Assembly: GCA_018027755.1 (NCBI GenBank)
Contig: GCA_018027755.1_4098.1
DNA length: 64,000 bases
Direction: 5' to 3' (one strand)
From: a phage
The notes under the pieces: generated by a model
Databases searched by the model: none
What the model was told of the DNA's origin: nothing
Seen by the model: the letters and a program-made list of their open reading frames with translations, nothing else
Translations under genes and position numbers: made by a program
Shown: positions 1 to 64,000 of the stretch, one piece after another
Numbering within the stretch: the stretch's first letter is position 1
Layout of the letters: each line of letters opens with the position of its first letter

Positions 1-2
1 AA

Positions 3-3581: not shown

Positions 3582-3589
3582 ATGAAAAA

Positions 3590-4137: not shown

Positions 4138-4151
4138 TATAAAAAAATAGT

Positions 4152-4211
4152 TTGACAATAGATTATAGTACTGTATAATAGTTTACATCAAGGGGAGAAA
4201 AACTTCTCCCC
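4152..4211 (+). promoter_or_regulatory. promoter plus 5' leader hairpin
   Basis: TTGACA-16-TATAAT; GGGGAGAA...TTCTCCCC hairpin. Confidence 0.65.
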
Positions 4212-4233
4212 ACTAACAGAGAGAGAAAACAAA

Positions 4234-4446
4234 ATGGCTAATATCCGGTCGAAATTAAAAAATGCAAAACAAGTTTTATTTTCAGATCATGAATACTTTA
4301 ATAAAGATATTACAGGAGTTACAAGTATCAAGGAAGTAAAAGAAAAAACCGGTGTTTTGTGTGATGTGCGATTAGTTGGGACATTTGGGAATAACGTGCT
4401 ATATCGCTGCGGTGATTACAATTTTACACTGACTATCATTAACTAA
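4234..4446 (+). CDS. hypothetical protein (70 aa)
   Basis: track ORF; purine-rich SD. Confidence 0.65.
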   Translation: MANIRSKLKNAKQVLFSDHEYFNKDITGVTSIKEVKEKTGVLCDVRLVGTFGNNVLYRCGDYNFTLTIIN

Positions 4447-4529
4447 AAATATTATCACAGTACTATTGACATAGTTTGATAGTACTGACATAATAACTTT
4501 TATCAACTACACTACTAAGGAATTAAAAA

Positions 4530-4709
4530 ATGGCTATCATCGCAAAAACTGAAATCGTTGGTCTGGATTCTATCATCATGACGTTTGAAGATCAAAAAGG
4601 TATGTATGTAGTTTCCTATGGTGATTATGTTCGGGAGTATGAAACGGTAGACGAAGCCTTTGAAAGTTATATTCGCCAGGTGAATAAAGCATACGACGAC
4701 TACCGCTAA
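4530..4709 (+). CDS. hypothetical protein (59 aa), MAII-start paralog
   Basis: ATG after TAAGGAA SD; promoter repeat upstream; resembles 1383 gene; below track cutoff. Confidence 0.55.
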   Translation: MAIIAKTEIVGLDSIIMTFEDQKGMYVVSYGDYVREYETVDEAFESYIRQVNKAYDDYR

Positions 4710-4801
4710 AATATATTACCAGTACTATTAAATCTATTGACAACGTTTGATAGTACTGTATAATAAGTTTTATAAACAGTAATTAACTTAACCTAAGAGA
4801 G

Positions 4802-4954
4802 AGAAACAAAATGATCGCACTGGATTCATTCATCGACGCAGTACTGGCAAAAACTGGCGAGGATCTGACCGCAGAACAATACGCGATGATCGAGCAATGT
4901 CAGCAAAACGGTAAATCGGTGAAAGATACTGTTAAGATTATCCGCAAGATGTAA
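4802..4954 (+). CDS. hypothetical protein (50 aa)
   Basis: ATG after AGAGAGAGAAA; promoter upstream; E. coli-like codons. Confidence 0.5.
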   Translation, partial: RNKMIALDSFIDAVLAKTGEDLTAEQYAMIEQCQQNGKSVKDTVKIIRKM

Positions 4955-4960
4955 TATTAT

Positions 4961-4988
4961 AGCCCACTGGTTAACGCTGGTGGGCTTT
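4961..4988 (+). terminator. terminator-like hairpin
   Basis: stem AGCCCAC/GTGGGCT then short T-run. Confidence 0.45.
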
Positions 4989-5059
4989 AATCATTTACCC
5001 TATACAATGCCAGTACTAAACCGTTTATCTCGTTAGAATGCGTTACAGGACGTTTAACA

Positions 5060-5257
5060 ATGATTAGCATGAAATCAGTACAAAAACAAATAGAAACATT
5101 ATCAAAAATTAAACGTAAACAGTACTCCTTAGAATATACAATCAATGGTAACTATCATCTAATGAAAGAAAATAATTTTATAGTCATTGATGAATCATTG
5201 CAAATCATTAGTATAGTACTGAAAGCATTAATCAATGACAGAAAAAAATTAAAATAA
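5060..5257 (+). CDS. hypothetical protein (65 aa), doubtful
   Basis: track ORF; no clear SD; AT-rich. Confidence 0.3.
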   Translation: MISMKSVQKQIETLSKIKRKQYSLEYTINGNYHLMKENNFIVIDESLQIISIVLKALINDRKKLK

Positions 5258-5363
5258 TCTATTGACAATATCATCCAGTACTGGCATAATACTTACATCA
5301 AGACGAGAACGTCACTAACCCATAGGGTGCACAAATGTAACTATATAATATCGTTCAATAAAT

Positions 5364-5423
5364 GATCAAAAAAGTACTGGATCAATTTAACATAAGGAGT
5401 ATAATTCTGATCAATTCTTGATC
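5364..5423 (+). promoter_or_regulatory. cluster of four GATC sites in TGATCAA context
   Basis: GATC at 5364, 5380, 5409, 5420; upstream of TraR-like gene. Confidence 0.4.
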
Positions 5424-5586
5424 AAAGGCAATATACGCAGTTGAATTTATATAGACAATACAAAGGCGTTACTATCCGTGGTAATGCTGGTGGATATGTA
5501 GTATCATATGGTTTGAATAAGATTAGCACTAGTAGTATTATTGTAGCATTACAGTACTATAGTATTTTTATAATGAGGTTAAAATA

Positions 5587-5844
5587 ATGGCAGTAGGATA
5601 CGCGAAAGACGGGGCCGAACAAGACGAGATTCACGCAGTGATTCAGGCCGCCGTTAACCACGCTAGAAAGCAAATTAACGCACAAAGAGAATCACTGGTA
5701 CATTGCCTCGACTGCGGCGATAAAATCCCTGAGAATCGACGCCAGGCCGTTATAGGGTGCATGTATTGTATTACTTGCCAGGAGGATCATGATAGTACTT
5801 TTAAAAGAGATCCGCGTAATTGTTGGCATAGATCTATGAGATAA
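5587..5844 (+). CDS. TraR/DksA-family C4 zinc-finger protein
   Basis: CLDCGDKIPENRR...CMYCITCQ matches TraR/DksA zinc-finger signature. Confidence 0.7.
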   Translation: MAVGYAKDGAEQDEIHAVIQAAVNHARKQINAQRESLVHCLDCGDKIPENRRQAVIGCMYCITCQEDHDSTFKRDPRNCWHRSMR

Positions 5845-5907
5845 AAAGTATTGACAGTACTGAAAGATAGTGTATAATGTTTTATATCTTAACTGAGGAT
5901 AGTAATC

Positions 5908-6264
5908 ATGGGAATACAACATATCACGCGTACTACTGACAATGGAGAGATCACTGGTTATCAGGTACAGGGCAAAGTAGCACAATTGCAGTACTGGTTT
6001 GTTAAACGTGGAATCATTGCACCGGATCTTGATTATGACCGTGTAGCGTTTATTGATTCTCTTTATGTTGATCCTGATAGTCGGGGCAATGGTGAAGGTA
6101 ACGAATTAATGAATGCCTTTATTGATGCCGCCGGTGATTCAGATTGTATCATCTTAGAATGCGATACGGGAGAAGATAACGCCTTTAATCTTAAAGAATG
6201 GTACGAAGGTTTCGGATTCGAGGTATTGATAGATAGTGAATATCCTATCATGATTTTATCATAG
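5908..6264 (+). CDS. small GNAT-like acetyltransferase (tentative)
   Basis: LYVDPDSRGNGEGNELM resembles GNAT motif A; SD GAGGA. Confidence 0.45.
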   Translation: MGIQHITRTTDNGEITGYQVQGKVAQLQYWFVKRGIIAPDLDYDRVAFIDSLYVDPDSRGNGEGNELMNAFIDAAGDSDCIILECDTGEDNAFNLKEWYEGFGFEVLIDSEYPIMILS

Positions 6265-6342
6265 TACTTGCATTTAGTTTTCAGTACTGTTATAGTACTT
6301 ACATCAAGGGGAAACGTCTTCCCCTACTAAGAGGAAATGAAA

Positions 6343-6531
6343 ATGGAAAACTTATCAAGTATTTTAGTACAAGATGATTTTGGCAATCCTGGTAGTGCTA
6401 TCATTGTTCGGGGTAATAAAGCAACGTTTGTTATTGCTGGTGGGCCAGTACAGCGTAGCATTAAAAATAATGCTGTTACCATTAATAATGTACGCTATCG
6501 CTTAGATAAAGAATTGATTCATAAACTTTAA
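6343..6531 (+). CDS. hypothetical protein (62 aa)
   Basis: second ATG chosen for SD spacing (track start 6337). Confidence 0.6.
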   Translation: MENLSSILVQDDFGNPGSAIIVRGNKATFVIAGGPVQRSIKNNAVTINNVRYRLDKELIHKL

Positions 6532-49589: not shown

Positions 49590-50438
49590 ATGTTAGACAT
49601 TTCAGATTTTCTTAATTTTAAAAAGTATTCAGTACTTGAACATATCAACGAATTTCTGAATTCTACTACACCATTTGGTATCAGTACATCAAATGCATAC
49701 GATGGATATACAATCTTCCCATACAATGACTTTCAAATTTCCGTCAAAAAAGGTTTTACAAAAGAAGTTGCAATTCGTGATGTAGTAATGTATAGCGATT
49801 CTTCTATTTCTTACTGTCATGACGTGAACAAGTTTGAATCTCTTTCAACACCTAATTGTTCATACTACAAATCCCATGACACGATGATGTATAAAGAACA
49901 ACATATCAATGGTGTTTCGTTCTATAAAACTAGCAGTGATAAATCATATACATCTAGAGATGATTTTGGAAAATACACATGTACTATGCACACGGATAAT
50001 GAAAAAACAAATTACACTCATTCATTCGAGTCCAAATTCCAAGAGAGTGAAGTTTCAAATATCACTATACAAGAACAGGTTTCAGAAGGCATTGTATATC
50101 GTAGTACTGCATTCTTTCGCATGAAAGATATTGCCACAGGCAGACCAATGATGTACAATATTGACATATACATGAAAGGTGATATATCCGAAGTAGTGAT
50201 TAGTACTGGTTATCGTGAAAAATATACAGTTACAATGGAATCACCAGATGCATCATTAGTTCACCTCTTTAACAATTTATATACATTCCAATTCGAACTT
50301 AGTTTCGATCCAAATGAATATCAAATATTTGATATATTAAAAAGTAATATTATTAATAAGTTAGAATATTACTACAAGTTAGGTGGTAAGATGTGCATAG
50401 TTAATACTATGTTACATAACATAAAAGAAACATTATAA
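49590..50438 (+). CDS. hypothetical protein (282 aa), possible divergent Fam-B
   Basis: ATG after GAGGA SD (track TTG at 49584); C-terminal YTFQFELSFD. Confidence 0.55.
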   Translation: MLDISDFLNFKKYSVLEHINEFLNSTTPFGISTSNAYDGYTIFPYNDFQISVKKGFTKEVAIRDVVMYSDSSISYCHDVNKFESLSTPNCSYYKSHDTMMYKEQHINGVSFYKTSSDKSYTSRDDFGKYTCTMHTDNEKTNYTHSFESKFQESEVSNITIQEQVSEGIVYRSTAFFRMKDIATGRPMMYNIDIYMKGDISEVVISTGYREKYTVTMESPDASLVHLFNNLYTFQFELSFDPNEYQIFDILKSNIINKLEYYYKLGGKMCIVNTMLHNIKETL

Positions 50439-50454
50439 ATCTGGAGGATTTGGT

Positions 50455-50748
50455 ATGGATACTAAATTCAAAATTATTTTTAAAACTAAGCCGTATATTC
50501 CACATACAGCAGAACGTTTTATACCACATGGTGCTGAGGAAATTATTCACCAAGATGGTACTAAGTTATACCTTGTTCCTTGTTCTTATGAACGTGCAGT
50601 AGAAATGTTACTAATGAATGCTAGACTATGCAAAAACAAGTACATTAGTTACCTATACAATGAACATATTTTAGATTTCAATGATGAAAATATGTTCATT
50701 CTAGCAATTGAGGATTTTGATAACTGGTACAATATTATTAAAATCTAA
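50455..50748 (+). CDS. hypothetical protein (97 aa)
   Basis: track ORF; SD GGAGGA. Confidence 0.6.
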   Translation: MDTKFKIIFKTKPYIPHTAERFIPHGAEEIIHQDGTKLYLVPCSYERAVEMLLMNARLCKNKYISYLYNEHILDFNDENMFILAIEDFDNWYNIIKI

Positions 50749-50819
50749 TGAAAATAATGTGAACATATTAGATTCTTGTGATATAATGTTCACATCTTTT
50801 TTTGATAACGGAGATATAG

Positions 50820-51206
50820 ATGAATACAAGTTCAATCCTAAAAGCAATTGGTGGTGTTTTACTCATTGAAGTAAAAGGTGAGCCAAAGCTATGCTGTTTA
50901 GAAGATATGAAGAATACAAAACACTTCAGTACTGGTCAGATTTTCAATGCCATTCGTATTCTAAATGACAAATCCATTGCTGATTATGGAAAAGTTTGGC
51001 CTGTATATCAAAATGCTGATGGTGATATCAGTACTGATTGGAAAACAATTGAGGCGGTACGACAAAGTTGTGAGAGTGATTGGGACTTCATTGTTGAAGT
51101 TTGTGATCAACTACAAGAAGATGTTCCAGAAATTGTTGAACGAAAAGAAGTTCTAGCACGACTTGAAAAATTCCGTCACGGAACACTACAGTATGACACA
51201 ATCTAA
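50820..51206 (+). CDS. hypothetical protein (128 aa)
   Basis: track ORF; extended -10 promoter TGaTATAAT upstream. Confidence 0.6.
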   Translation: MNTSSILKAIGGVLLIEVKGEPKLCCLEDMKNTKHFSTGQIFNAIRILNDKSIADYGKVWPVYQNADGDISTDWKTIEAVRQSCESDWDFIVEVCDQLQEDVPEIVERKEVLARLEKFRHGTLQYDTI

Positions 51207-51255
51207 TCTGCTTATTAAAAATATCTAATTAACATTATATAAAAGGAATTTAAAA

Positions 51256-51561
51256 ATGGAAGACAATGGAATGAAATTTGATATGTTTGAAGGTGTACCA
51301 GAGTTCGATTTCAACAAACTTGAAGAAGGTGAGGAATCAGAACTAGTTAGTGTTACACTTAAAGCAGATTCTAAAAAGAAATATTCATCATCAGTACGTT
51401 CACGTTCACAAGAAGAATACGAAACATTTATTGAAAGTATTCATTATGAAACATTCCATCACGCAGATGGAACTCCATATGAAGTACGTGTAACAGTACT
51501 GAAGCCTGAAGTAAATCCAATGGAAAATCTACGTCCTGTTTACTGCTGGGCAAGTCACTAA
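51256..51561 (+). CDS. hypothetical acidic protein (101 aa)
   Basis: track ORF; SD AAAGGAA. Confidence 0.6.
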   Translation: MEDNGMKFDMFEGVPEFDFNKLEEGEESELVSVTLKADSKKKYSSSVRSRSQEEYETFIESIHYETFHHADGTPYEVRVTVLKPEVNPMENLRPVYCWASH

Positions 51562-51570
51562 TAAACCAAA

Positions 51571-51601
51571 GGACGGGATTTGTTATCTCGTCCTTTTTTT
51601 T
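51571..51601 (+). terminator. rho-independent terminator
   Basis: stem GGACGGGAT/ATCTCGTCC then 8-nt T-run. Confidence 0.8.
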
Positions 51602-51613
51602 GTCTGGAGATGT

Positions 51614-52468
51614 ATGAAACTTTATCTAATCGTTGACTACAATAAGGATTATGCTGGTAACTTCACCGAAGATTCGGATGGATATTGCACATCGACTAAT
51701 GTCAATGTACGTAGCAGTAGTGCTCATGAACATGAATCTTGTAAAAATCTAAAAGATTTTATCGCATACCGAGCATTTGAAAAGAACTTCTGCCGCAGTA
51801 GATATTCGAAGTTTGAGTACCCGTTAATTGATGTTCCTGATGATTTAATGTTCCAGTTAATGCTGACTGGAGTTCAAGATTATGATTACATAGCGTATAA
51901 TCATATTACTAAGAAAATTTATATTGGTACATCATCACATGACACTTCTATGTATGCATCATGCCCAGATGATCGAATGAATGATAGAAAATCATACTAT
52001 AGTGGGTCAGTTGGTTTAAATGATTCATTAAATAAAAATTCATTCTTTGAGTATGTTTATGATTACCATCATGAGAAAAAAGAACGTGAAGATTACTGTA
52101 TAGCAATTGATAGTACTAATGGTTATGAAGACGTGAAAGAAGCACTTATGCCGTACATTATTGAAAAGTACTACAAAGATTTTCAGTACTGTAGTAATTT
52201 TCTAATCAGAAATTCTATTATAATCGGTCGCCAATCTAGTGCATACTCTCAGTACTATAATGATTCACCAGTAGCATCGGCAAATGAAATGTGTGATATT
52301 TTACAAATTCCACGTGAAGATATGGCATTCATTTTTACATCTTTTATTGAAGATGATGAGTTGTATATTAAAAATAAACACCGTTTCATGCCAAGCAAGA
52401 TTGAGGTTATTCGAAGTTTTAGTGTTGATATACTAACAAATTTCACAGAAAAAACCGAATATAACTGA
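51614..52468 (+). CDS. hypothetical protein (284 aa), possible divergent Fam-B
   Basis: track ORF; N-terminal region DLMFQLMLTG. Confidence 0.55.
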   Translation: MKLYLIVDYNKDYAGNFTEDSDGYCTSTNVNVRSSSAHEHESCKNLKDFIAYRAFEKNFCRSRYSKFEYPLIDVPDDLMFQLMLTGVQDYDYIAYNHITKKIYIGTSSHDTSMYASCPDDRMNDRKSYYSGSVGLNDSLNKNSFFEYVYDYHHEKKEREDYCIAIDSTNGYEDVKEALMPYIIEKYYKDFQYCSNFLIRNSIIIGRQSSAYSQYYNDSPVASANEMCDILQIPREDMAFIFTSFIEDDELYIKNKHRFMPSKIEVIRSFSVDILTNFTEKTEYN

Positions 52469-52497
52469 GACAAATGATAAGTTAATGATATAATATA

Positions 52498-52530
52498 AGG
52501 TGACAACATAATATGTTAGTCACCTTTTTT
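52498..52530 (+). terminator. rho-independent terminator
   Basis: long stem AGGTGACAACATA/TATGTTAGTCACCT then T-run. Confidence 0.75.
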
Positions 52531-53070
52531 AATCCTGAAAGGTTCCCATAAGGAAATGATTAAAAGCCTAATCCACTCGAAAATGTAGAGGGTAGATGAG
52601 TAGTCCTTTCAGTACGAACAGCAGATGAAACCCGTTAGATGATGGCATAGTTTGAACCACTCACGGCAATGCGGCTGTATAAAGAACTCCAATAGGATAA
52701 AGAGAGTTCCTCGATAGACATATAAGGATCGCACCTTACCAATTATCTAAGGGAGATTTCATAAGAAATATGCGGTCGGAATTATACAATATAGTTGCGT
52801 CCAAATTTTGTGAAATCAAATACAAGTACTGGTCATATGGTATTTGTATTATGTGTCGGGATGTTTAAGACCGACGACCGTTGCTACAAGAACCGCGATA
52901 GAGAGAAACAGAGCAACCCGCTTTCGTCTCGTAAGAGAATTCGTGATATGAACTATGTGAAGGCCACCAGCGTCAAATTTTTTTGTTCTTTCCCCTGCGG
53001 GGGGATGAAATATGCTCAAGCAAACCCCGTCAATATTAATTAAAAGAAAATAGTACTTGTAGAATTAGAC

Positions 53071-53691
53071 ATGCGTAGCATGATAATTCTACTGATGTTG
53101 ATGCAATCAACGTCACGTATATTCATTGATGTTTCCATAGGAATAATGATGGCATTTATTAGAAAAGAAAAAACTGTTACTTATAAAACTTTGAATTTTG
53201 ATGATTGCATTAATCAATCACAAGACGAAGATATCTTTACTGGATATGTGGTTATTAAAGAAAAAGGATGCATTTCTTATATAAAGGAATTACAAAATGG
53301 AATTGAAGTGACTTCAGTTAAATTACTTCCTACTCAAAAACCAACAATATCAAAAGCCCAGTATGGTAATTATTTTGAAGAAAGATATAGTAATAATTCA
53401 ATAAGTGTTAAGGCTCATATTATTAAAGGAGAACTAGAAGGAGAATATAGAAAATACAACCCACAAGGAAAATGTGTTTGGGTTAAATACTTCAATTCAG
53501 GATATGATGTAACATCTGAAATTATAGAATTCTTGGGTTTAAAATGTACCCCTGAGACTATTCATGATTACAAGTTCAATACTGAAGAAGAGTTTAATCT
53601 GATGATGCGTTACGGTTCACATTTTAAATTTTTATATGAATATAACATTGACAGTAGTACTTTTGATAAGATAGTACACAACTGTCTCTAA
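53071..53691 (+). CDS. MORN/YwqK-like repeat protein (tentative)
   Basis: G-x-Y/W repeat units such as GEYRKYNPQGKCVWVKYFNSG; start uncertain. Confidence 0.4.
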   Translation: MRSMIILLMLMQSTSRIFIDVSIGIMMAFIRKEKTVTYKTLNFDDCINQSQDEDIFTGYVVIKEKGCISYIKELQNGIEVTSVKLLPTQKPTISKAQYGNYFEERYSNNSISVKAHIIKGELEGEYRKYNPQGKCVWVKYFNSGYDVTSEIIEFLGLKCTPETIHDYKFNTEEEFNLMMRYGSHFKFLYEYNIDSSTFDKIVHNCL

Positions 53692-53707
53692 CAAAAGGAA
53701 TTATATA

Positions 53708-54229
53708 ATGTCGAAGAAGGATGCTTCGAAAAAACATTCAGTACATTTCAGTACTGGAAAGGACAACTGGACAACTCCCAAAGATTTCTTTGAAGATTTG
53801 GATGAGTTATGGGGATTTACACTTGATGCTGCTTGTGTTGATGAGACTGCATTATGTGAGAATTATTTTACACCAAATGATGATTCTCTTTCACAGGATT
53901 GGGGAAAGAATATAGTTTGGTTGAACCCTCCATATAGTGATTTGAAAACATGGTTATCTAAAGCAGTAGATGCGTATAATAAAGGGGCAACTGTATTAAT
54001 TCTTGTACCATCAAGAACGGATACTATAGCCTTTCAGGATTATGCTGCGAAAGTTTGTGATTGTATTTGTTTTATTAAGGGAAGGTTACGATTTGGTATC
54101 CCAGAAGAACCAGAGAAGAAAACAGATTCAGCACCATTTCCTTCGTGTCTGATAGTACTGGATAAGTACTTAACCACTGCTAAAATCAATTATCTTAAAT
54201 CTCTTGGATTGGTGATGAAGAATTTATGA
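53708..54229 (+). CDS. dam: phage Dam-like DNA N6-adenine methyltransferase
   Basis: NWTTPKDFFEDLDELWGFTLDAACVD and LNPPYS motif; SD AAAGGAA. Confidence 0.85.
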   Translation: MSKKDASKKHSVHFSTGKDNWTTPKDFFEDLDELWGFTLDAACVDETALCENYFTPNDDSLSQDWGKNIVWLNPPYSDLKTWLSKAVDAYNKGATVLILVPSRTDTIAFQDYAAKVCDCICFIKGRLRFGIPEEPEKKTDSAPFPSCLIVLDKYLTTAKINYLKSLGLVMKNL

Positions 54230-55011
54230 CAAAATACATTGATATCAACACAGTTTCTATGATAGGAAAACCACCAAATGCTCTACACCCACGTGTTTAT
54301 GCTAGTAGAATAAATGATAAACTAAAAGCACCTAAGCTATCAAATATTAAATTTAATGGCTTTGTTGGTGAATGGAATGGACACGGAACTTATTGTGAAA
54401 TGGAATGTTCTGAACATGGGACATGGAAATGTACAATTGGTAATTTTACACATCAAACAGTCGGTTGTCCTGTATGTGTTGGCTGCAAAAAACATACCAA
54501 AGAATCAATAAGTGAAAATGTAAAATCAATTATCGCAAATGATTCAGAAAGAAATATGTATACATTTCATGGCATACATAAATTTTCTGGTAAAGATTCA
54601 ATACTATCATTGGAATGCCCAACACATGGTATATGGAACACTACCAGTTATAATAATTTCAAAGTTCATGGCTATGGTTGTCCAGAATGCTCAACCTATA
54701 ATTTAAAGCATGATGTTAAATCTGATGATGAGCTTTATTTTTATATCCTGAAAGCTGAAGACCATTTCAAATTAGGTGTTTCTAAAGATATCACTCGCAG
54801 AAAATATGATATTGAAAATACTTCCAAACAAAAGTATGAGTTATATCTTCATGAATATATTGGATATACTAATGAAATTGAAAAGTATATAAAAAGTATG
54901 GGTTATCATACATTCTTTACAAAAGAAGAATATGGTAGTGGATACACCGAAACTGTTGGGATTGATAAGCTGGATGAAGTTGTGAGAATTGTAAGAGAGT
55001 ACCTTAAATGA
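54226..55011 (+). CDS. Cys-repeat protein with GIY-YIG-like (T5orf172-type) C-terminal domain; possible endonuclease
   Basis: repeated CxxC zinc-ribbon-like units; C-terminal YFYILK...KLGVSKDITRR...GSGYTET. Confidence 0.4.
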   Translation: MTKYIDINTVSMIGKPPNALHPRVYASRINDKLKAPKLSNIKFNGFVGEWNGHGTYCEMECSEHGTWKCTIGNFTHQTVGCPVCVGCKKHTKESISENVKSIIANDSERNMYTFHGIHKFSGKDSILSLECPTHGIWNTTSYNNFKVHGYGCPECSTYNLKHDVKSDDELYFYILKAEDHFKLGVSKDITRRKYDIENTSKQKYELYLHEYIGYTNEIEKYIKSMGYHTFFTKEEYGSGYTETVGIDKLDEVVRIVREYLK

Positions 55012-55541
55012 AAGAAACATGTATACTATCATTCATGAGATGTAACCCAATACATAATGGACATGGGTTTGTATTCAACAGTGCATTGGAATTGAAAGAA
55101 CAGTACAATGCTGATTTAAAAATATATCTAAGCACCAGTACTGACAATATAAAAAACCCACTCCCACCTGAACTAAAAATGTATTATACAGAGGGATTCT
55201 ATCCTTCAGTGCAAGAGAACATCTACACAGAAGACAATCTATTTGATATAATGAGAGAACTGGATGGAAAGTACTTAGATGTTCTTTTCATTTGTGGTTC
55301 TGACCGTATTGATTCTTTTCAAAAAACTCTTGACATGTACAATGGTAAGTTGTATAATTTTTGTAGTATAAAAGCAATTCAGGCAGGTATTGACCGTAAT
55401 GTAAGTCAATATAGCTCAACACAAATGCGTAACTTCGCAAAAAATGAAGATTTTGATAGTTTTCGTGAGTTTTTACCTGGAAATGACGAGGACTTAAAAA
55501 TACAATTATTTGAAGACGTTATAAAATACATGAGGAAATAA
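55008..55541 (+). CDS. NMN-adenylyltransferase-like nucleotidyltransferase
   Basis: N-terminal FMRCNPIHNGH matches the nucleotidyltransferase H-x-G-H motif; C-terminal SSTQMR; ATGA overlap. Confidence 0.55.
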   Translation: MKETCILSFMRCNPIHNGHGFVFNSALELKEQYNADLKIYLSTSTDNIKNPLPPELKMYYTEGFYPSVQENIYTEDNLFDIMRELDGKYLDVLFICGSDRIDSFQKTLDMYNGKLYNFCSIKAIQAGIDRNVSQYSSTQMRNFAKNEDFDSFREFLPGNDEDLKIQLFEDVIKYMRK

Positions 55542-55543
55542 TT

Positions 55544-55837
55544 ATGTCAGTACTGTTCAAAACCAATCCAGTACTTTGGGATCAAAATGAGCAATCAGGA
55601 TTTCGTTCCATCCATGTTGAATACAAAGGTAATACTGTAGTTGCAATTATTGCTAACAAAACTCTAGGAAACTGGACTGCACAGGTTGTTCCTATGGGAT
55701 ATTCTTACACATCTGATGAGGTACAATTTCTGGCTGAACTATATCGCCAAGTGCCGTTTATCATTAATGTACTAGAAGGTAATGATACATTATCACATGC
55801 AGATGTGATTAATTTTCTTGGAAACTTGCATGTGTGA
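55544..55837 (+). CDS. hypothetical protein (97 aa)
   Basis: track ORF; 2 nt after upstream stop. Confidence 0.55.
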   Translation: MSVLFKTNPVLWDQNEQSGFRSIHVEYKGNTVVAIIANKTLGNWTAQVVPMGYSYTSDEVQFLAELYRQVPFIINVLEGNDTLSHADVINFLGNLHV

Positions 55838-56117
55838 TGAAATAAATCTTACAGGATATTTTTTACAAGAATCAATGATTAAATTTAGTGATAAATTTTC
55901 AGTACTGGATGGTATCGAAATGTGGCATGTCAAACCACTGTTCCACACTTTCAGTAAAGAGCACAAAATGTTATTGACTGAAGCCAGTAAATCAAATAAC
56001 ATATGTGAAATCAAAATTGGTGTAAATGTCTATAAAGGGATGGTTATCTTTTTTGACAATAACAGCAACTACTTTTATATTGTTAAGGAGCATTACGTTG
56101 ACAAATACAAATACTAA
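55830..56117 (+). CDS. hypothetical protein (95 aa)
   Basis: first ATG in frame (track TTG at 55818). Confidence 0.5.
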   Translation: MCDEINLTGYFLQESMIKFSDKFSVLDGIEMWHVKPLFHTFSKEHKMLLTEASKSNNICEIKIGVNVYKGMVIFFDNNSNYFYIVKEHYVDKYKY

Positions 56118-56712
56118 TACATATTTCCGTTATCTTCGCTTAGGTCTTTCCCTACGTCCGATCCGTGGAAAGTGCGATTCACTCGCTGACCTTGACTATG
56201 CATATGCATTACATCATGAAGGTGTACAGTATGTATTGGGTGATTATGGTGAATTTGAAGAAACAAATGACAGTACTGGAATTAATGCTGGTGTAGAAAA
56301 TCTTAACAACATTGCTAACAGTTCTCGCCATGACATTGTGTTACAGATTCAAAACTTTATTGAGCAGCACACAGGTAAACGTGTTTGGTGCTATGTCGGT
56401 ACTGATGCACAAATGTCAATTTCATTCGGTAACGATGAAGGATATGTTGCACAGCTTATTATGGATTTTGAATCTGAAGAGAAGTTTTTAGAATTCAAAG
56501 AAAAGATTATTCAGTCACTTGTTGATATGGGTATCCCCGAAGATAAAATGCCAGAAGTTCAAAACATTGATGAATTTGTTTTGATTCCATCTGATGAGAA
56601 ATATGATGCAATGTTTACTGCCCTTAATATTCCAGGAGTTATTGTGGAGTACTTTGATGATGGTGATGATAGTATCTATATCGATCTAGATGACGATGAC
56701 GACGATGAATAA
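56026..56712 (+). CDS. hypothetical protein with poly-Asp C-terminal tail
   Basis: track ORF; ends DLDDDDDDE; start uncertain (possible TTG at 56098 after AAGGAG). Confidence 0.5.
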   Translation: MSIKGWLSFLTITATTFILLRSITLTNTNTNTYFRYLRLGLSLRPIRGKCDSLADLDYAYALHHEGVQYVLGDYGEFEETNDSTGINAGVENLNNIANSSRHDIVLQIQNFIEQHTGKRVWCYVGTDAQMSISFGNDEGYVAQLIMDFESEEKFLEFKEKIIQSLVDMGIPEDKMPEVQNIDEFVLIPSDEKYDAMFTALNIPGVIVEYFDDGDDSIYIDLDDDDDDE

Positions 56713-56719
56713 TGTACAT

Positions 56720-56746
56720 AGCCCGACATAAGTTCGGGCTATTTTT
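56720..56746 (+). terminator. rho-independent terminator
   Basis: stem AGCCCGA/TCGGGCT then T-run. Confidence 0.75.
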
Positions 56747-56758
56747 GTAAGGGGATAT

Positions 56759-57034
56759 ATGAATTATAAAGTTCTACAATATACATACAGTGTTTTGTTT
56801 GATTTACATCACAATGGAAGATATCTCAATACAATACGAGAAAACACATTCACTCATACTATCTGGATTAATCACTTAATAATGATACGTGAATATTTTG
56901 TTAATAGTGAGATAATCATTCGTGGTAAAAAACAGAAGATAGAACAAGTTAATAGTTTTGGTGGTAAATTAGTACTATCATTTATAGATAGTAATACTAA
57001 TGAAAGATATAGTATAGATTTGGTGGACATATGA
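56759..57034 (+). CDS. Fam-D paralog 1
   Basis: N-terminus MNYKVLQYTYSVLFDL; SD AAGGGGA. Confidence 0.6.
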   Translation: MNYKVLQYTYSVLFDLHHNGRYLNTIRENTFTHTIWINHLIMIREYFVNSEIIIRGKKQKIEQVNSFGGKLVLSFIDSNTNERYSIDLVDI

Positions 57035-57297
57035 ATTATAAAGATTTCCTACTAACATACAAGATTATTCGAGATTTAGCACACGACAATGATAGCCCTA
57101 GTCTAGAAGACACATGCACTGAAATGATTCATACAATTCGTGGTAAGATTAAAAAAAAATTCAGTACTGTTATTATTGGTGATGACCATGCAGAATTTTC
57201 TGATATAATCATTAGACGTGATGGTAAAGTTGAGGTTCAGTACTACACTGATTTTGGATTTACCAGTATTCCGTTGGAGATATTCCCTTGGGATTAA
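57031..57297 (+). CDS. Fam-D paralog 2
   Basis: N-terminus MNYKDFLLTYKIIRDL; ATGA overlap. Confidence 0.6.
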   Translation: MNYKDFLLTYKIIRDLAHDNDSPSLEDTCTEMIHTIRGKIKKKFSTVIIGDDHAEFSDIIIRRDGKVEVQYYTDFGFTSIPLEIFPWD

Positions 57298-57599
57298 ATT
57301 TAAATGATATACAATTCACTTATAAGATCCTATATGATTTGTATGATGTATACCTTGTTAGTAACAAAATAGGTTCACATAACCCATACAAAGAACAACC
57401 ATTTATTGATTTATATATTGAGTACTTAGATTCAGTAGGTGAATATATAAAAAAGAATTACAGTACTTTTATCGACGGAAATGATATATTCGAGTTCTCT
57501 GGAGTTAAATCATACAATGGGATTATCCATGTTGAATTTCTTGAAATAACCGATAGGGGATTTATCGAGATTAAAGTTGTGAAGTTGGTGAATTTATAA
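57288..57599 (+). CDS. Fam-D paralog 3
   Basis: LNDIQFTYKILYDL; non-ATG (TTG) start, uncertain. Confidence 0.5.
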   Translation: MGLNLNDIQFTYKILYDLYDVYLVSNKIGSHNPYKEQPFIDLYIEYLDSVGEYIKKNYSTFIDGNDIFEFSGVKSYNGIIHVEFLEITDRGFIEIKVVKLVNL

Positions 57600-57609
57600 G
57601 AGGTTACAT

Positions 57610-57921
57610 ATGTTATTAAATGATATACAATTCACATACAAATTTTTGTATATCCAATACGCTACGGTTGATGCTGGAGAATATCTCTACGGTGAAATCT
57701 ATCGTTCGGTATGGATAAAGTTTTTGGATGAATTACATGAATATTACCATGATTTGTGTATAGTTCGTGATAATAAAATATACAAATTCCGCGATATTGT
57801 TAGTCATAGCGGTAAGCTACGATTGGAATTAAGTACTGATAGTGATGTTGATTGGATTGGTGTAAATTTACTGGAGTTGGAGAATGAAAAACAACTTAAA
57901 GGAAATACAAGTATTTTATAA
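57610..57921 (+). CDS. Fam-D paralog 4
   Basis: LNDIQFTYKFLYIQ; SD AAGAGG. Confidence 0.65.
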   Translation: MLLNDIQFTYKFLYIQYATVDAGEYLYGEIYRSVWIKFLDELHEYYHDLCIVRDNKIYKFRDIVSHSGKLRLELSTDSDVDWIGVNLLELENEKQLKGNTSIL

Positions 57922-58168
57922 ATTCTTATACTTGTCATATGTAAAAGATGAGTACTATGAAAGTGTGTATTATTTTTTATGGCAACATTACCGTACTATA
58001 GTAAGAGATTTATATATAGGAAAATCTATCATATCCAATGGTGAAAAATGTATATGTACTGATGTTGTTAGTTTTAATGGTTCTTTAACACTGTGTTTCA
58101 GATGCGATAATAATAATGGGTCATTTTCATTAAACGTATATCAGTTAGAAGGAATAAATTTTGAATAA
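57884..58168 (+). CDS. Fam-D paralog 5
   Basis: LKEIQVFYKFLYLS; overlaps upstream gene. Confidence 0.55.
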   Translation: MKNNLKEIQVFYKFLYLSYVKDEYYESVYYFLWQHYRTIVRDLYIGKSIISNGEKCICTDVVSFNGSLTLCFRCDNNNGSFSLNVYQLEGINFE

Positions 58169-58361
58169 ATGTCCATATTGTAACAGTACTCAATTAGCTC
58201 GTTTCCGTTTAGATTCAGACTGGGCGACTGGTGCTGGTGATTTCTTCCCTATTAATGATGATGCAGAATACACCGAAGAACAGCACAAAGATTTTGATAA
58301 ATCATGGCGACCTGACATTGAGTGCATTTATTGCCTTAATTGTGAGCGTGTTCATGACTAA
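58161..58361 (+). CDS. small zinc-ribbon-like protein (66 aa)
   Basis: CPYC ... CIYCLNC Cys pairs. Confidence 0.55.
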   Translation: MNKCPYCNSTQLARFRLDSDWATGAGDFFPINDDAEYTEEQHKDFDKSWRPDIECIYCLNCERVHD

Positions 58362-58617
58362 AGCTGAACTAATAGTTCATACATATAAAATGATATCAAG
58401 TACTGAGTTATCATATAGTGCAGATAATCCAGTACTGGATTATTTTGTTGAATTATTGAAAGAGCATTATATTGGTAAATCACTGATTCTTAATAATATT
58501 AATTTCACGGTAAAGGATGTAGCACCTGGAAAAAACGTACTAATAGTATGTGTTACTTCATCTGATAACCCAGTATACCCAATATCAATAATTTTTGAGA
58601 TATTAGGAGATTTATGA
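58354..58617 (+). CDS. Fam-D paralog 6
   Basis: internal ATG with ATGA overlap (track 58231); same size class as Fam-D. Confidence 0.5.
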   Translation: MTKAELIVHTYKMISSTELSYSADNPVLDYFVELLKEHYIGKSLILNNINFTVKDVAPGKNVLIVCVTSSDNPVYPISIIFEILGDL

Positions 58618-58904
58618 ATATCATTTTAATGCAGAAAACATATGCTATATTGGTGAAAGATTATTCCATTACTTTCGATTCACAAGAAAGTGCTCTACAT
58701 AACCTATACAAAAACGTAACACAAGAATACAGAAATATGTTTTCTGACTTAGTAGTAGGAAGGTATTTCAGTACTAGAAAATACCCAAAACTTCAAATAG
58801 TTGATGTTTCTTTTTATTTCAATGGTCATATTACTATTCATAGTTTAGACCAAGATTCAACAACGTACTTAAACTTTTCATTTGATGAGGTAACATTTTT
58901 ATGA
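58614..58904 (+). CDS. Fam-D paralog 7
   Basis: N-terminus MNIILMQKTYAILVKDY; ATGA overlap. Confidence 0.55.
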   Translation: MNIILMQKTYAILVKDYSITFDSQESALHNLYKNVTQEYRNMFSDLVVGRYFSTRKYPKLQIVDVSFYFNGHITIHSLDQDSTTYLNFSFDEVTFL

Positions 58905-59074
58905 GAACAGTATTTTTTATCTGGAGTCTTTTTTCATTGGCAGTACTGACAGTATGTGGGATTTGTTTACTTTCGACAATGAATGTCTGGTACATTAATT
59001 TACTATTCCCATTCGTAGGTGTAGGTTTAGGATTTACTTTACATAGTGTTTGTAAGGATTTTAATGGCAAATAA
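58901..59074 (+). CDS. small membrane protein (57 aa), two predicted TM helices
   Basis: ATGA overlap; hydrophobic; below track cutoff. Confidence 0.45.
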   Translation: MRTVFFIWSLFSLAVLTVCGICLLSTMNVWYINLLFPFVGVGLGFTLHSVCKDFNGK

Positions 59075-59348
59075 ATCGAATGAAGTACTTGTTGCTGAAA
59101 CAATGAAGATGGTTTATGCCATAACAACTAGTAATGATTTGTCTTACCCAATTAAGTCCAAGTTGAGGGATATAACTCTTCAGGTTATACAGCAGTACTA
59201 CAAATCTAAACACAAAAGTATTATTAATGTTTATCGTGACTATGAAAGGATTCGCATTTTGTTCTGGAACAAGAATCGAGTTCGTTCGGAATGTGATATA
59301 GAAAACTTTAAATTTGAGAATCTTTATTGTTACAAAGCGGGACAATAG
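59064..59348 (+). CDS. hypothetical protein (94 aa)
   Basis: internal ATG (track 59046); overlaps upstream small ORF. Confidence 0.5.
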   Translation: MANKSNEVLVAETMKMVYAITTSNDLSYPIKSKLRDITLQVIQQYYKSKHKSIINVYRDYERIRILFWNKNRVRSECDIENFKFENLYCYKAGQ

Positions 59349-59397
59349 CTCAAGTAGTGATATAATATTGGATGAGGAACAATAACTAACACAAGGA

Positions 59398-60330
59398 GTG
59401 TGTAAAGTGCCAAGTAAAAAGCCAGATTCTGAAGTATTCAGACTGGTTGATGAAAAATTGAGTTCAATTGGTTCATCGGTAAAAATGGATAGAACAACAT
59501 ACACTACTATATCAAACAAATCAACTTTTTTCTGTGATGAATGTGGGTTTAGTAAAAATATCATAGTTAGGAATGTGTACAAAAATGGAATATTTTGTCA
59601 CTGTCCCACATTTAAAACTTTATATAATAAATTGGGTGAAATTAATTCAAAATTAAAATTAGATATTTCCACATTCACAACTACAAAAAACAAATCTAGA
59701 TTTTATTGTGACGATTGTGCGTTTGAAAGATATATGACGGTGCATGATGTTAAGTCTAGAGGTTCATATTGTAAATGTCATTCATCATATTGTATGCCGT
59801 TAGATATCGACGAAGCATATAACACTATTATGAATAAAATAAAAGATTACTCAAATACAATATATATGGATAAATCTACATACCGTGGTACACAATATAA
59901 GGTTAGATTTTATTGTACAGCGTGTAATTTTGACAAATATATTAATTATAGTAGAGTTAAATGTGGATCTCTTAACTGCAATTGTATCAGACCAATCCCA
60001 GAAGAAAGTAAATTATATATTTTAGGAATATATGAACAAAATATTTTAATAAAATATAAAGTTGGTATTTCTACAAAGATTGATAAATCAAGACTAATTA
60101 GTATTAGGTCAAAAACTAATTTTATAGTAGAGGAATTATATTATTTTACTGGAAATACCGAAGTTATTAAAAGTGTAGAATATAATATTTTAAATCTGCT
60201 TAAAAATAGTAGTAAATTGCCAAAGGATTATTTTGGTGATGGGTATACTGAAACATTTGATTTACAAGACATAAATCTTGTTATTGATTATGTATGTAAA
60301 TGTTTACTCGAAAATAAATTAAAAATATGA
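59398..60330 (+). CDS. Cys-repeat protein with GIY-YIG-like (T5orf172-type) C-terminal domain; paralog of 54226 gene
   Basis: three FxCDxCxF...CxC repeats; C-terminal KLYILGIY...KVGISTKIDKSR...DGYTET; SD AAGGAG; GTG start. Confidence 0.4.
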   Translation: MCKVPSKKPDSEVFRLVDEKLSSIGSSVKMDRTTYTTISNKSTFFCDECGFSKNIIVRNVYKNGIFCHCPTFKTLYNKLGEINSKLKLDISTFTTTKNKSRFYCDDCAFERYMTVHDVKSRGSYCKCHSSYCMPLDIDEAYNTIMNKIKDYSNTIYMDKSTYRGTQYKVRFYCTACNFDKYINYSRVKCGSLNCNCIRPIPEESKLYILGIYEQNILIKYKVGISTKIDKSRLISIRSKTNFIVEELYYFTGNTEVIKSVEYNILNLLKNSSKLPKDYFGDGYTETFDLQDINLVIDYVCKCLLENKLKI

Positions 60331-60355
60331 AAATCATAAACACAAGGAATGTGAA

Positions 60356-61084
60356 ATGATAGATAATATAAAATTTGCAACAGAAATGGCGAATCAACTC
60401 AATATTGCAAATTTCCAAATGTTAACATCTGTTATGGCTGAACATGCTGCGGCATATTCATCTAGCGGTATACAATGTGGACAAGCTAACATGTTAGCTG
60501 ATGTTTATAGTGAAGTTCAAAGCAAACAATATAGCGTAAAGACATACAAGGATAAGTTCGTAAGTCTTTATATGAATGAAGATATTTCAGAAGACCGCAA
60601 ATTCACCGATTTTATTATTGAACGCCGTATTAGTGGGGTTTCAGACCCAAATGCAGCAAGTGATATTGTATTCGATGAGGTATTAAAAGATATATATGAA
60701 AATGAATTGAAAAGTAAGAATCATTACAATGTACGTGAAACTAACACAGTGCTAGTTGGATATGATGAAGACGACCAATATTTCTATTTTCGTATAACAG
60801 AAGTTCCATTTGAATATAAAAAACCATCCACTACATCGGTAAAAGAATTCACTGAGAAGAGTAAAAACTTCAAGAAACACGAAGGAAACCGTTGTAGTAT
60901 TAATGGTTATGATGAAAATGGTGTTCATGTTTATGAATGGGTTTCACCTAATTGCCAAACATACACTCGTTGCTTGAAAAAACGTTATAATTTAGAAGAG
61001 CATGAATCATTCTATTTTAAAGTTAAGAAGCAAGGTTACACTCGCCCCGCCGATTCTGAATTGATGGGTATGATATATTTCTAA
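60356..61084 (+). CDS. hypothetical protein (242 aa)
   Basis: track ORF; SD AAGGAA. Confidence 0.6.
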   Translation: MIDNIKFATEMANQLNIANFQMLTSVMAEHAAAYSSSGIQCGQANMLADVYSEVQSKQYSVKTYKDKFVSLYMNEDISEDRKFTDFIIERRISGVSDPNAASDIVFDEVLKDIYENELKSKNHYNVRETNTVLVGYDEDDQYFYFRITEVPFEYKKPSTTSVKEFTEKSKNFKKHEGNRCSINGYDENGVHVYEWVSPNCQTYTRCLKKRYNLEEHESFYFKVKKQGYTRPADSELMGMIYF

Positions 61085-61094
61085 GGAAACTTCT

Positions 61095-61376
61095 ATGGAT
61101 TTTTATCTACACACATGGACATACGAACAATATATTACATTATATCTTGAAATTATTAACACAGAACCTAGGTGTGGTTGTTGGTTCGCAGATATCATAA
61201 AAGAGTATGCTGACGAGTTCGAGTTTGTGTATCTTGGGTCTGATATATTTGTAAAAAGTGTAGGTAAAACCGGACGAATCACTGATATAGATTACGACAC
61301 TGTTAGTGTGAATTTCTATGTTGATTTTCCTGATGCTGGCGTTGATGGTGTATATTGTCTATATGAAATAATTTAA
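61095..61376 (+). CDS. hypothetical protein (93 aa)
   Basis: track ORF; terminator follows. Confidence 0.55.
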   Translation: MDFYLHTWTYEQYITLYLEIINTEPRCGCWFADIIKEYADEFEFVYLGSDIFVKSVGKTGRITDIDYDTVSVNFYVDFPDAGVDGVYCLYEII

Positions 61377-62309: not shown

Positions 62310-62995
62310 TTAAAGATTTAGATAGAATTTTATATGTACTAAGGGGTGTAATTACATTACATCCACAAATCAATCGAATTGAAAGTACATTTCAGTTGGA
62401 GTCAAGAGAAACTCCATATTCACATATATCAAATGTAGTTGGTTCACTCAGTACTGAAGACTCGCCTTACGATATTTGTGTATGTGAAGTACAACCAAGT
62501 TCGGATCTTGGATTTGCTATTTTTGATAAAAATCAAAATCTCATTAGTATGTTTCAGTGCAATAATCCTTTTTGGAAAACATGCCTGTATCCAGAGTGGG
62601 CGATGCTTGATCCAACCAAGAGTACCATTAAAGTTTATGACTCTAAAAATGATGAAGTCGTTATTGATTTGGATGAGTCAATGTCAGAGGAAGAACACTT
62701 TCAGCTAATGATGATGCGTGCTATGCCTGAGTACAATGCAATGATTAACACTGTGCAATACATTAAGGATACTATGCCATCATTGCGTACACATGAGTTT
62801 TGTCATCCTGTATTGTATGAACATTTGGATTTAGATTTCAGTACTATTAAATTTAAAGATAGTGTTATTAGATATATCCAAGAGGTTACTAAATTTGATT
62901 TTATTAGTACTATGAACAATAATCCAAAAACTAATTTTAGGCATCAGTACAATGAATCTTTGTCCGGTGGACGCGATACAAGTTGGTGGAAATAA
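62306..62995 (+). CDS. Fam-B paralog
   Basis: motif EEEHFQLMMMRA; ATGA overlap. Confidence 0.6.
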   Translation: MIKDLDRILYVLRGVITLHPQINRIESTFQLESRETPYSHISNVVGSLSTEDSPYDICVCEVQPSSDLGFAIFDKNQNLISMFQCNNPFWKTCLYPEWAMLDPTKSTIKVYDSKNDEVVIDLDESMSEEEHFQLMMMRAMPEYNAMINTVQYIKDTMPSLRTHEFCHPVLYEHLDLDFSTIKFKDSVIRYIQEVTKFDFISTMNNNPKTNFRHQYNESLSGGRDTSWWK

Positions 62996-62996
62996 T

Positions 62997-63260
62997 ATGA
63001 ATATTAAAGATAGATTACAATTACTATACACTATTGAACAGGCTGCTTTTGAACTTGTTAATAAAATCTCCGAAGAACTTCCCAAAGGAACTATAGTTCG
63101 TGTAATTGAGAGGGATTATGAATCTGGAGAAATTGAAGAACTAGTACTAACCGTGAATAAAGTAACATACTATGAATCTGAGTTGGCTATCCAATGTATA
63201 TCGGAAGATGGTAAAATATACTATTATGACACTGGTGTAGATATAGAGGTAATAAAATGA
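62997..63260 (+). CDS. hypothetical protein (87 aa)
   Basis: internal ATG (track 62952); ATGA overlap with rnlA start. Confidence 0.55.
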   Translation: MNIKDRLQLLYTIEQAAFELVNKISEELPKGTIVRVIERDYESGEIEELVLTVNKVTYYESELAIQCISEDGKIYYYDTGVDIEVIK

Positions 63261-64000
63261 CCCTTTTACAAATATATGAAGATTTAATGCACTTATGTAA
63301 TACAAACGATGCGTTTTTTTATGTGGATCATAAAAGTCCTGCTGGTGGTACGTATCGTGTATTCAGTTATCGTCTAGCATCATACACTGATTTCATGCAA
63401 CCAAATGCGTTGGAAACCCGTGGCTCTATGTGGGAAATTGATGAAGAAGGTGACATGATACGTTGTGCAGCACGTACAATGAAAAAGTTCTTCAATGCTT
63501 ACGAGAATCCTGCTACAATGTTCCCTGCTAACACCACATGCGATGACATTGCGGTAGTGATGCCTAAGTTGGATGGTTCGATTATCAGTACTTATCGTGA
63601 TAATGATGGTGAGATTCGTTGTAAATCACATACTGCATTGTATTCTGACCATGCGATTAACAGTACTCGACTTATTAACGAGAACCAGAATTTGTACCAG
63701 TACATCGACGAAGCGGAACGTTTAGGTTACACAGTTAATATGGAGTATACAAGCCCAGAGTACCGAATTGTATTACCATATCAGGTAGAACAACTGTTTG
63801 TACTGAACGTTCGACATCGTGTGAGTGGTGAGTTGCTATGTGGTAAAGCACTACGTGATAAGTTTCCATGTCTTGCACAGTACAGTACTAATATGACTGG
63901 AAAAGATATTCATCACACTTTTCCGGTACGAAATACCTTCCGTGAAAGCGTGGAGGAAGTTCATAAAATGCTTGATATTGAGGGTTTTGTGTGCATCCTA
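63257..64000 (+). CDS. rnlA: RNA ligase 1 (T4 gp63/RnlA-like), 3' end outside window
   Basis: recalled similarity to T4 RnlA N-terminal domain: FFYVD...GGTYRVFSY, ALETRG, KFFN..ENP, lysine motif KLDGS. Confidence 0.85.
   Translation, partial: MTLLQIYEDLMHLCNTNDAFFYVDHKSPAGGTYRVFSYRLASYTDFMQPNALETRGSMWEIDEEGDMIRCAARTMKKFFNAYENPATMFPANTTCDDIAVVMPKLDGSIISTYRDNDGEIRCKSHTALYSDHAINSTRLINENQNLYQYIDEAERLGYTVNMEYTSPEYRIVLPYQVEQLFVLNVRHRVSGELLCGKALRDKFPCLAQYSTNMTGKDIHHTFPVRNTFRESVEEVHKMLDIEGFVCIL

Follow-up and report, generated by a model that had tools for sequence, protein, structure and literature searches.

Genes that couple one or several zinc fingers of the CapR, DUF723 or DUF4379 type to a T5orf172 domain are abundant putative homing endonuclease genes (HEGs) of phages, including ICP1, T5-like phages and others (PMC10448857). 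Described members are gp53, gp121, gp130, gp165 and gp174 of ICP1, as well as genes of T5-like phages and of Plateaulakeviruses (Barth, Dunham & Seed 2023, PMC10448857; Netter et al. 2021, PMC8096241). DNA binding by the finger domain is known from CapR (PMC8096241). The T5orf172 domain of Odn cleaves DNA in vitro, and a conserved Glu is needed for this activity (E180A; PMC8263062); it is the only such demonstration that we found in the literature. Here we describe two genes, HEG1 and HEG2, in a 64,000-nucleotide stretch of phage DNA (NCBI GenBank assembly GCA_018027755.1, contig GCA_018027755.1_4098.1; hereafter the window), which belongs to a 121Q/PBECO4-like jumbo coliphage of the genus Asteriusvirus. 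Our literature search found no paper on HEG1 or HEG2 in Asteriusvirus. Within the GIY-YIG superfamily, both genes very probably belong to the T5orf172 branch as free-standing HEGs. Elements of this kind are already known, and the locus is a clear natural example of two independent homing scars.

The two genes and their distribution among related phages

The two genes and their predicted domains are located as follows:

54226-55011, plus strand: HEG1, 261 amino acids, probable free-standing T5orf172-type homing endonuclease gene
54346-54693, plus strand: predicted DNA-binding region of HEG1, two CapR/DUF723-type zinc-finger modules, recognized by Pfam and by conserved Cys columns
54718-55008, plus strand: C-terminal T5orf172/GIY-YIG-like domain of HEG1 (Y173, K182-x-G184, R192, E219, G239-x-T-E242)
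59407-60330, plus strand, in an open reading frame (ORF) that opens at 59398: HEG2, 307 amino acids from the GTG (310 from 59398), probable divergent T5orf172-type homing endonuclease gene
59485-59991, plus strand: predicted DNA-binding region of HEG2, three tandem zinc-finger modules of ~65 amino acids, C-x2-C...C-x-C
60004-60327, plus strand: C-terminal T5orf172/GIY-YIG-like domain of HEG2 (Y204, K218-x-G220, R229, E258, G279-x-T-E282, numbered from 59407)

The GTG at 59407 is the more likely start of HEG2, because its position corresponds to that of the start codon in the displaced downstream gene, and because the homologue in phage vB_Ec-M-J is annotated at 924 bp. A first-pass annotation, made from the letters of the window, had reported two genes with tandem zinc-ribbon-like Cys repeats here; we recovered both on the plus strand, with two finger modules in HEG1 and three in HEG2.

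Region 53000-61100 of the window matches 36 phage records, all from phages of Escherichia or Salmonella. Its coverage in these records is banded, at ~78% and 88-89%, which was the first hint that one or both HEGs are missing in most relatives. HEG1 is present in 2 of the 36 records (ECO103 4-12-1 and EC22.5-2, 99.9% identity) and HEG2 in three (EC.P1 and TH47, 99.9%; vB_Ec-M-J, 98.8%), and none of the 36 contains both. Phage 121Q has neither gene, and HEG2 is also absent from ECO103 4-12-1 and ph0011. The genes are far more alike between genomes than the genomes themselves: the surroundings of HEG2 in EC.P1 and TH47 are only 84-88% identical to the window, and the HEG2 copies there are 99.9% identical. 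Since each gene is missing from at least 31 of the 36 relatives, which carry HEG-less alleles of the flanks, the genes appear to have been gained in the lineage of the window.

All deposited copies occupy the insertion sites of the window, and only one of them is named as an endonuclease, the others being labelled 'hypothetical protein' or left unannotated. The HEG2 copies are EcMJ_170 ('endonuclease', vB_Ec-M-J), XOD30549.1 (EC.P1) and an unannotated copy in TH47, and the HEG1 copies of ECO103 4-12-1 and EC22.5-2 are both unannotated. By tblastn, HEG2 has just three relatives among 50,697 phage records (EC.P1, TH47 and vB_Ec-M-J), and HEG1 has relatives of ~30% identity in 424 further records from Escherichia, Vibrio, RaK2-like Klebsiella, Salmonella and Aeromonas phages. 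HEG1 also matched two places in the ECO103 4-12-1 genome (OR844650.1) and three to five places in some genomes of RaK2-like Klebsiella and RB49-like Escherichia phages, so that related jumbo phages have additional paralogues of this family at other places in their genomes. A local search with a hidden Markov model found no third family member in the window.

Insertion sites

HEG1 lies between two intact genes, in line with its description in the first-pass annotation as sitting between a methyltransferase and an NMNAT-like gene:

53708-54229, plus strand: Dam-type N6-adenine DNA methyltransferase, left flank of HEG1 (PF05869, E=7.5e-32)
55008-55541, plus strand: cytidyltransferase-like HIGH-motif nucleotidyltransferase, right flank of HEG1 (phrog_3041, E=3.9e-54)

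The insertion is seamless. The ATG of HEG1 overlaps the TGA of Dam (ATGA, 54226-54229) and its TGA overlaps the ATG of the cytidyltransferase (ATGA, 55008-55011), so that ATGA is found at both ends. Phage 121Q lacks positions 54226-55007 (782 bp), and its empty site is a single ATGA overlap between Dam and the cytidyltransferase.

HEG2 is inserted upstream of the homologue of 121Q gp432, and its junctions include the following features:

58969-59406, plus strand: upstream co-conversion tract of HEG2; the sequence is 121Q-type to 58968 and donor-type from there
60339-60358, plus strand: second ribosome-binding copy AACACAAGGAATGTGAAATG, a direct repeat of 59388-59409, recognized from the junction sequences and a 30-bp double alignment to 121Q
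60356-61084, plus strand: homologue of 121Q gp432, right flank of HEG2 (phrog_16105)

In 121Q, gp431 and gp432 are 58 bp apart at the empty site. The upstream tract holds a promoter-like element, GGGACA-16-TG-TATAAT (59339-59366), and a ribosome-binding site (AAGGAG within 59388-59409), which serve gp432 in HEG-less phages. HEG2 has taken over this promoter-like element, the AAGGAG site and the start-codon position of gp432, and the AACACAAGGAATGTGAAATG copy behind its stop codon restores translation signals for the displaced gp432 homologue. A promoter and terminator scan gave counts no higher than in shuffled controls; the conserved TG-TATAAT upstream of HEG2 is a suggestion only.

The first-pass annotation had remarked that free-standing nuclease-like genes often mark mobile insertions. 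That these two genes are such insertions is borne out by clean empty sites in 121Q and most relatives, by the small numbers of carriers (two and three), and by the donor patches described below; in relatives without the HEGs, the gene order shows each empty site intact, and presence or absence is precise at one site. In ph0011, the gp431/gp432 site (window ~59350-59400) holds an unrelated 494-amino-acid tail-fibre-like ORF (L004:6608-8092; phrog_13714, E=5.7e-184; no Pfam match). This 1485-bp ORF was considered as another HEG and rejected, being a tail-fibre-like gene. Different cargo has thus entered the gp431/gp432 site, which seems to be a hotspot of insertion.

Donor tracts around each gene

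The window is 99.8% identical to HEG-less 121Q over 50000-53760 (5 mismatches and 3 gaps in 3761 bp) and over 55096-58968. The exceptions to this 121Q-type background are two patches centred on the HEGs, at ~53822-55095/55291 and 58969-60966. Downstream of 60967, identity to 121Q drops to 97%. A description of the whole genome as 121Q plus two genes was rejected, as elsewhere in the window the identity to the best relatives is only 95-98%.

In the first patch, differences from 121Q span 53761/53839 to 55095. The 3' part of Dam (~53822/53839-54225) is donor-type and ECO103 4-12-1-like, with 36 differences from 121Q, and the first ~90 nt of the cytidyltransferase (55023-55095) show ~35 differences from 121Q and are identical to the HEG1-carrying relative. 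Over 53822-55291 there is a single mismatch to ECO103 4-12-1 (99.93% identity), and, of all the relatives, only the two HEG1 carriers match the first 103 nt of the cytidyltransferase at 100% identity.

The second patch differs from 121Q over 58969-60958, with an identity of ~80%. Here, positions 58970-59371 are identical to vB_Ec-M-J, and 59304-60966 have one mismatch to EC.P1 and TH47; over 58970-60966 as a whole, identity is 99.0% to EC.P1 and 98.7% to vB_Ec-M-J, and the flanks are just 80-91% identical to 121Q. The part downstream of HEG2 (60356-60966) is donor-type, being 100% identical to EC.P1 and TH47 and ~81% identical to every HEG2-less relative. The allele of this downstream gene is bimodal over the 36 relatives, with identities of at least 98.3% in the three carriers and at most 82% in all others.

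Flanking sequence has therefore been co-converted together with each gene. Each HEG brought along ~400 bp upstream, and the downstream tract is ~90-280 bp for HEG1 and ~640 bp for HEG2. The donors of the two genes differed.

The interval between HEG1 and HEG2

The first-pass annotation further proposed that the two genes bracket a mobile cassette. In this explanation, they would frame a composite mobile unit, an 'HEG island' (Barth et al. 2023), and 54226-60330 would have moved as one. The arrangement invites the idea, as two family members lie on one strand 4.4 kb apart, and HEG-flanked islands of high nucleotide conservation are known from other phages (PMC10448857, 'HEGs bracket essential genes'). 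The interval speaks against it. Positions 55096-58968 (3873 bp) have only 8 mismatches to HEG-less 121Q, compared with 96 to the HEG1 carrier ECO103 4-12-1 and a divergence of ~16% from the HEG2 carriers. Since the interval is 121Q-type and not donor-type, HEG1 and HEG2 were not transferred as the two ends of a single unit. An HEG island (Barth et al. 2023) is characterized by a co-transferred segment, unusually conserved between genomes with the same flanking HEGs, and no such segment is found here. In addition, the donor tracts of the two HEGs are separate and end at different points, none of the phage records has both genes, the order of genes between them is the same in all relatives examined with 0, 1 or 2 HEGs, and the cargo includes no recognised essential module. 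The cassette is already contradicted for this genome, and we consider it highly improbable. HEG1 and HEG2 look like two independent single-gene homing events, having arrived separately, each with its immediate flanks only.

The 'accessory' stretch between the two HEGs is a tandem array of ~8-10 small genes (85-105 amino acids), which continues beyond HEG2 (56759-59348, 61095-61376 and 62952-63260) and corresponds to 121Q gp422-431 and neighbours. The encoded proteins are mutually diverged paralogues with an N-terminal 'TYK(I/F)L' motif and a beta-rich C-terminal half. Within the array, 58384-58613 is a segment that is hypervariable between lineages: it matches 121Q exactly and, at only ~52% identity, can effectively not be aligned to EC.P1, TH47 and vB_Ec-M-J.

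Site fidelity and candidate target regions

The same two sites are occupied in distant relatives. Metagenomic contigs L010 and L012, whose flanking proteins are only 39-66% identical, carry an HEG1 homologue (54-58% amino acid identity) between Dam and the cytidyltransferase, and contig L011 carries an HEG2 homologue (56% amino acid identity) directly upstream of a gp432 homologue.

The N-terminus of gp432 reads MIDNIK... in all HEG2 carriers and in L011, and MLDRIR... in HEG2-less phages. The recurrence of MIDNIK in L011 points to the recoded 5' end of gp432 as the best candidate target and immunity region of HEG2, as judged from the alleles. For HEG1, the first ~90 nt of the cytidyltransferase form the downstream co-conversion tract and are the candidate target/immunity region. 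This recoded stretch encodes the HIGH motif, which is TFGRINPVHRGH in 121Q and SFMRCNPIHNGH in the carriers. Over a wider set of phages, the TFGRINPVHRGH allele occurs in 121Q and EC.P1, and the SFMRCNPIHNGH allele, which is without the usual Gly before Arg, in the window, ECO103 4-12-1, vB_Ec-M-J and ph0011; TH47 is mosaic (window 55008-55060).

Domain architecture and family assignment

Both products match phrog_681 'endonuclease' (HEG1, residues 33-260, E=6e-35; HEG2, residues 33-306, E=6e-21), which answers the profile search against nuclease families that the first-pass annotation had suggested. In Pfam, HEG1 matches the CapR homology domain in two stretches (E=1.2e-16) and DUF723 (E=1.2e-5), and no Pfam family matches HEG2 above threshold. 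The translation of HEG1 shows fingers of the form C61-x2-H64...C81-x2-C84 and C131-x2-H134...C152-x2-C155. The finger Cys residues of HEG2 are C43/46/64/66, C101/104/122/124 and C170/173/191/193 (numbered from 59407), and no Pfam finger model matched its three C-x2-C...C-x-C fingers. The repeat Cys columns are invariant in an alignment of all five modules of HEG1 and HEG2.

Direct assignment of the C-termini by Pfam or NCBIfam was set aside, since matches were below threshold or missing, and a profile search and fold comparison were used instead. The HEG1 C-terminus scored 16.2 bits against T5orf172 (PF10544; cut-off 20, E=0.015) and 13.9 bits against MUG113 (PF13455; cut-off 22.3, E=0.084), the HEG2 C-terminus matched neither T5orf172 nor MUG113, and neither window protein had a significant sequence match to PF01541. 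A homologue of HEG2, P0012 (55% identical), matched T5orf172 over profile positions 4-97 of 101 (E=0.013). A word-indexed protein search found few relatives (9 for HEG1 and 3 for HEG2). We built a C-terminal profile from the two window C-termini and seven relatives (cut E<=0.001), and an exhaustive search with it retrieved 3734 proteins, in every one of which the domain is C-terminal. Among 102 scanned proteins (100 sampled profile matches and the two window proteins; E<=0.001 for MUG113 and T5orf172), we found MUG113 in 55, T5orf172 in 45, DUF4379 in 50, DUF723 in 34 and CapR in 25. In alignments of 9, 11 and 102 sequences the Tyr, K-x-G, Arg, Glu and G-x-T-E positions are invariant or nearly so; in HEG1/HEG2 these are Y173/Y204, K182/K218, G184/G220, R192/R229, E219/E258 and E242/E282. 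By motif position, E242 of HEG1 and E282 of HEG2 would be the catalytic Glu of I-TevI and Odn.

AlphaFold models of both C-terminal domains are closest to SLX1 GIY-YIG nucleases, and the modelled fold, a three-stranded sheet with helices, is predicted to superimpose on solved GIY-YIG domains. A single-sequence search of solved structures returned nothing meaningful, and a profile search of the same structures gave UPF0213 GIY-YIG proteins without significance (E 0.19-0.53) and one spurious polyhedrin match. The earlier assignment of the C-termini as T5orf172/GIY-YIG-like agrees with the conserved positions, the 3734 proteins of the profile search and the likeness of the models to SLX1; the C-termini belong to this class, both being divergent and under the curated threshold.

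BLASTP aligns the C-terminus of HEG1 to that of HEG2 (E=0.003), and the proteins are ~17-25% identical. The two genes had been called paralogous; they are distant members of one family and not close or recent paralogues.

Weighing the homing interpretation

Several points count against reading the two genes as HEGs. The FMRCNP allele of the cytidyltransferase, which is linked to HEG1, is shared by some phages without HEG1 and therefore does not strictly mark its presence; the link is looser than that for HEG2. Ordinary recombination makes patches in this region too: at window ~62800-63300, identity to 121Q and all other compared relatives is 80-92%, and there is no nuclease-like gene in or adjoining the patch. 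The direction of change, gain in the lineage of the window and not loss in 121Q, is argued by parsimony alone. Finally, homing of T5orf172 genes is unverified according to the authors who described them (PMC10448857).

Some of these points would favour an explanation in which HEG1 and HEG2 are inactive or domesticated relatives of HEGs, such as CapR-like DNA-binding regulators, which were moved passively by homologous recombination between co-infecting jumbo phages. Domestication has a precedent in CapR, a repressor that derives from the same finger domain (PMC8096241), the T5orf172 match is below threshold, and at least one recombination patch of the region is without a nuclease gene. Yet CapR matches only the N-terminal finger domain of proteins of this type (PMC8096241), and both HEG1 and HEG2 have a full-length C-terminal domain with every family-invariant position kept. 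Moreover, both strongly diverged patches in 11 kb of 99.8% backbone (50000-60966) centre exactly on the HEGs, the gene copies are 99.9% identical across genomes that have diverged by 12-16%, and the same sites are filled in distant lineages. We therefore regard passive movement of domesticated genes as unlikely, and active homing endonuclease genes as the preferred explanation.

A further possibility concerns HEG2 in particular. Together with its few relatives, it could form a distinct, unprofiled T5orf172 sub-lineage with three C-x2-C...C-x-C fingers and self-immunity through the recoded 5' end of gp432, and HEG1 and HEG2 could be an HEG island at an early stage, before any joint transfer. 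The MIDNIK allele remains linked to HEG2 even where the HEG2 homologue is only 56% identical. We put this forward tentatively, as a somewhat unlikely extension of the homing explanation.

Proposed mechanism

By analogy with the known behaviour of free-standing phage homing endonucleases, we infer nuclease activity, the positions of the cut sites and immunity by recoded flanks. The proteins are laid out as 'beads on a string': the N-terminal zinc-finger array would recognize a particular DNA site, and the C-terminal GIY-YIG-like domain would cut nearby. When a HEG-carrying phage co-infects a cell with a HEG-less relative, the protein would cleave the HEG-less allele near the empty site, at the Dam/cytidyltransferase junction in the case of HEG1 and in the gp431/gp432 intergenic region or at the start of gp432 in the case of HEG2. 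Recombinational repair from the HEG-carrying genome would then transfer the gene and a few hundred bases of its flanks, and the HEG-carrying genome would be protected by its own recoded flank.

A nuclease of this kind might instead serve mainly as a weapon against competitors (other phages, satellites or host DNA) and not for its own spread. ICP1 uses the T5orf172 nuclease Odn against its satellite (PMC8263062), and free-standing endonucleases of T4 cause marker exclusion (as cited in PMC10448857). This explanation overlaps largely with homing, as cutting a competitor's allele amounts to being copied into it; presence and absence, donor tracts and fixed insertion sites are what self-propagation predicts, and nothing points to a target beyond the phage's own locus. 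A primary role as weapons is thus very unlikely, and homing accounts for the two genes better.

Other features of the window

The G+C content of the region is 30-35% (AT-rich), and the composition of HEG1 and HEG2 is unremarkable. Scans of the window for tRNA genes and Rfam families found nothing. Megablast with positions 1-25000, especially 1-6500, matched 128 phage records, some of them outside Asteriusvirus (Campylobacter phages, Phapecoctavirus, Justusliebigvirus and others). Within this part, Asteriusvirus records give their best matches only from ~6300-6500 onwards, and the first 7 kb of the window contain short ORFs only (<135 amino acids).

Comparison with known systems

The locus is an otherwise ordinary example of a described phenomenon that left an unusually clean natural record of homing: two insertions in a near-121Q backbone, with donor tracts that can be read within a few bases. 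It indicates where predicted cut sites may be looked for, namely in the first ~90 nt of the 121Q cytidyltransferase and at the gp432 start, and which sequences are candidate immunity alleles, namely the recoded flanks of HEG-bearing genomes. It extends the T5orf172 class of HEGs to the 121Q/PBECO4 jumbo coliphages, and it illustrates that HEGs can lie close together without acting as a cassette.

The closest described genes are the T5orf172 HEGs of Barth et al. (2023). Like them, HEG1 and HEG2 combine an N-terminal array of Cys/His fingers with a C-terminal T5orf172 domain, vary in presence among close relatives and sit at the boundaries of exchanged sequence, and HEG1 matches the Pfam CapR model directly. 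In contrast to the described members, the C-termini in the window miss the Pfam T5orf172 threshold, the HEG2 fingers match no Pfam model and the neighbours are no recognised essential genes; the 121Q/PBECO4-like Asteriusvirus lineage is absent from the main text of PMC10448857.

Phage T4 has GIY-YIG endonucleases that are free-standing (SegA-G) or encoded in an intron (I-TevI). As with Seg-type genes, the insertions are free-standing and intergenic and leave the neighbours intact, and gene conversion by SegG takes flanking markers along (as cited in PMC10448857). The catalytic domain is N-terminal in Seg proteins and I-TevI, whereas it is C-terminal in HEG1 and HEG2; the second motif is Y-x-G there and K-x-G here, and I-TevI has a zinc finger with a helix-turn-helix in place of the zinc-finger array. 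Odn (ICP1 Gp88) has a nuclease domain of the same class as HEG1 and HEG2 but differs from them in its RepA_N-type DNA-binding domain and its target, the replication origin of a satellite, being a weapon and not a homing element.

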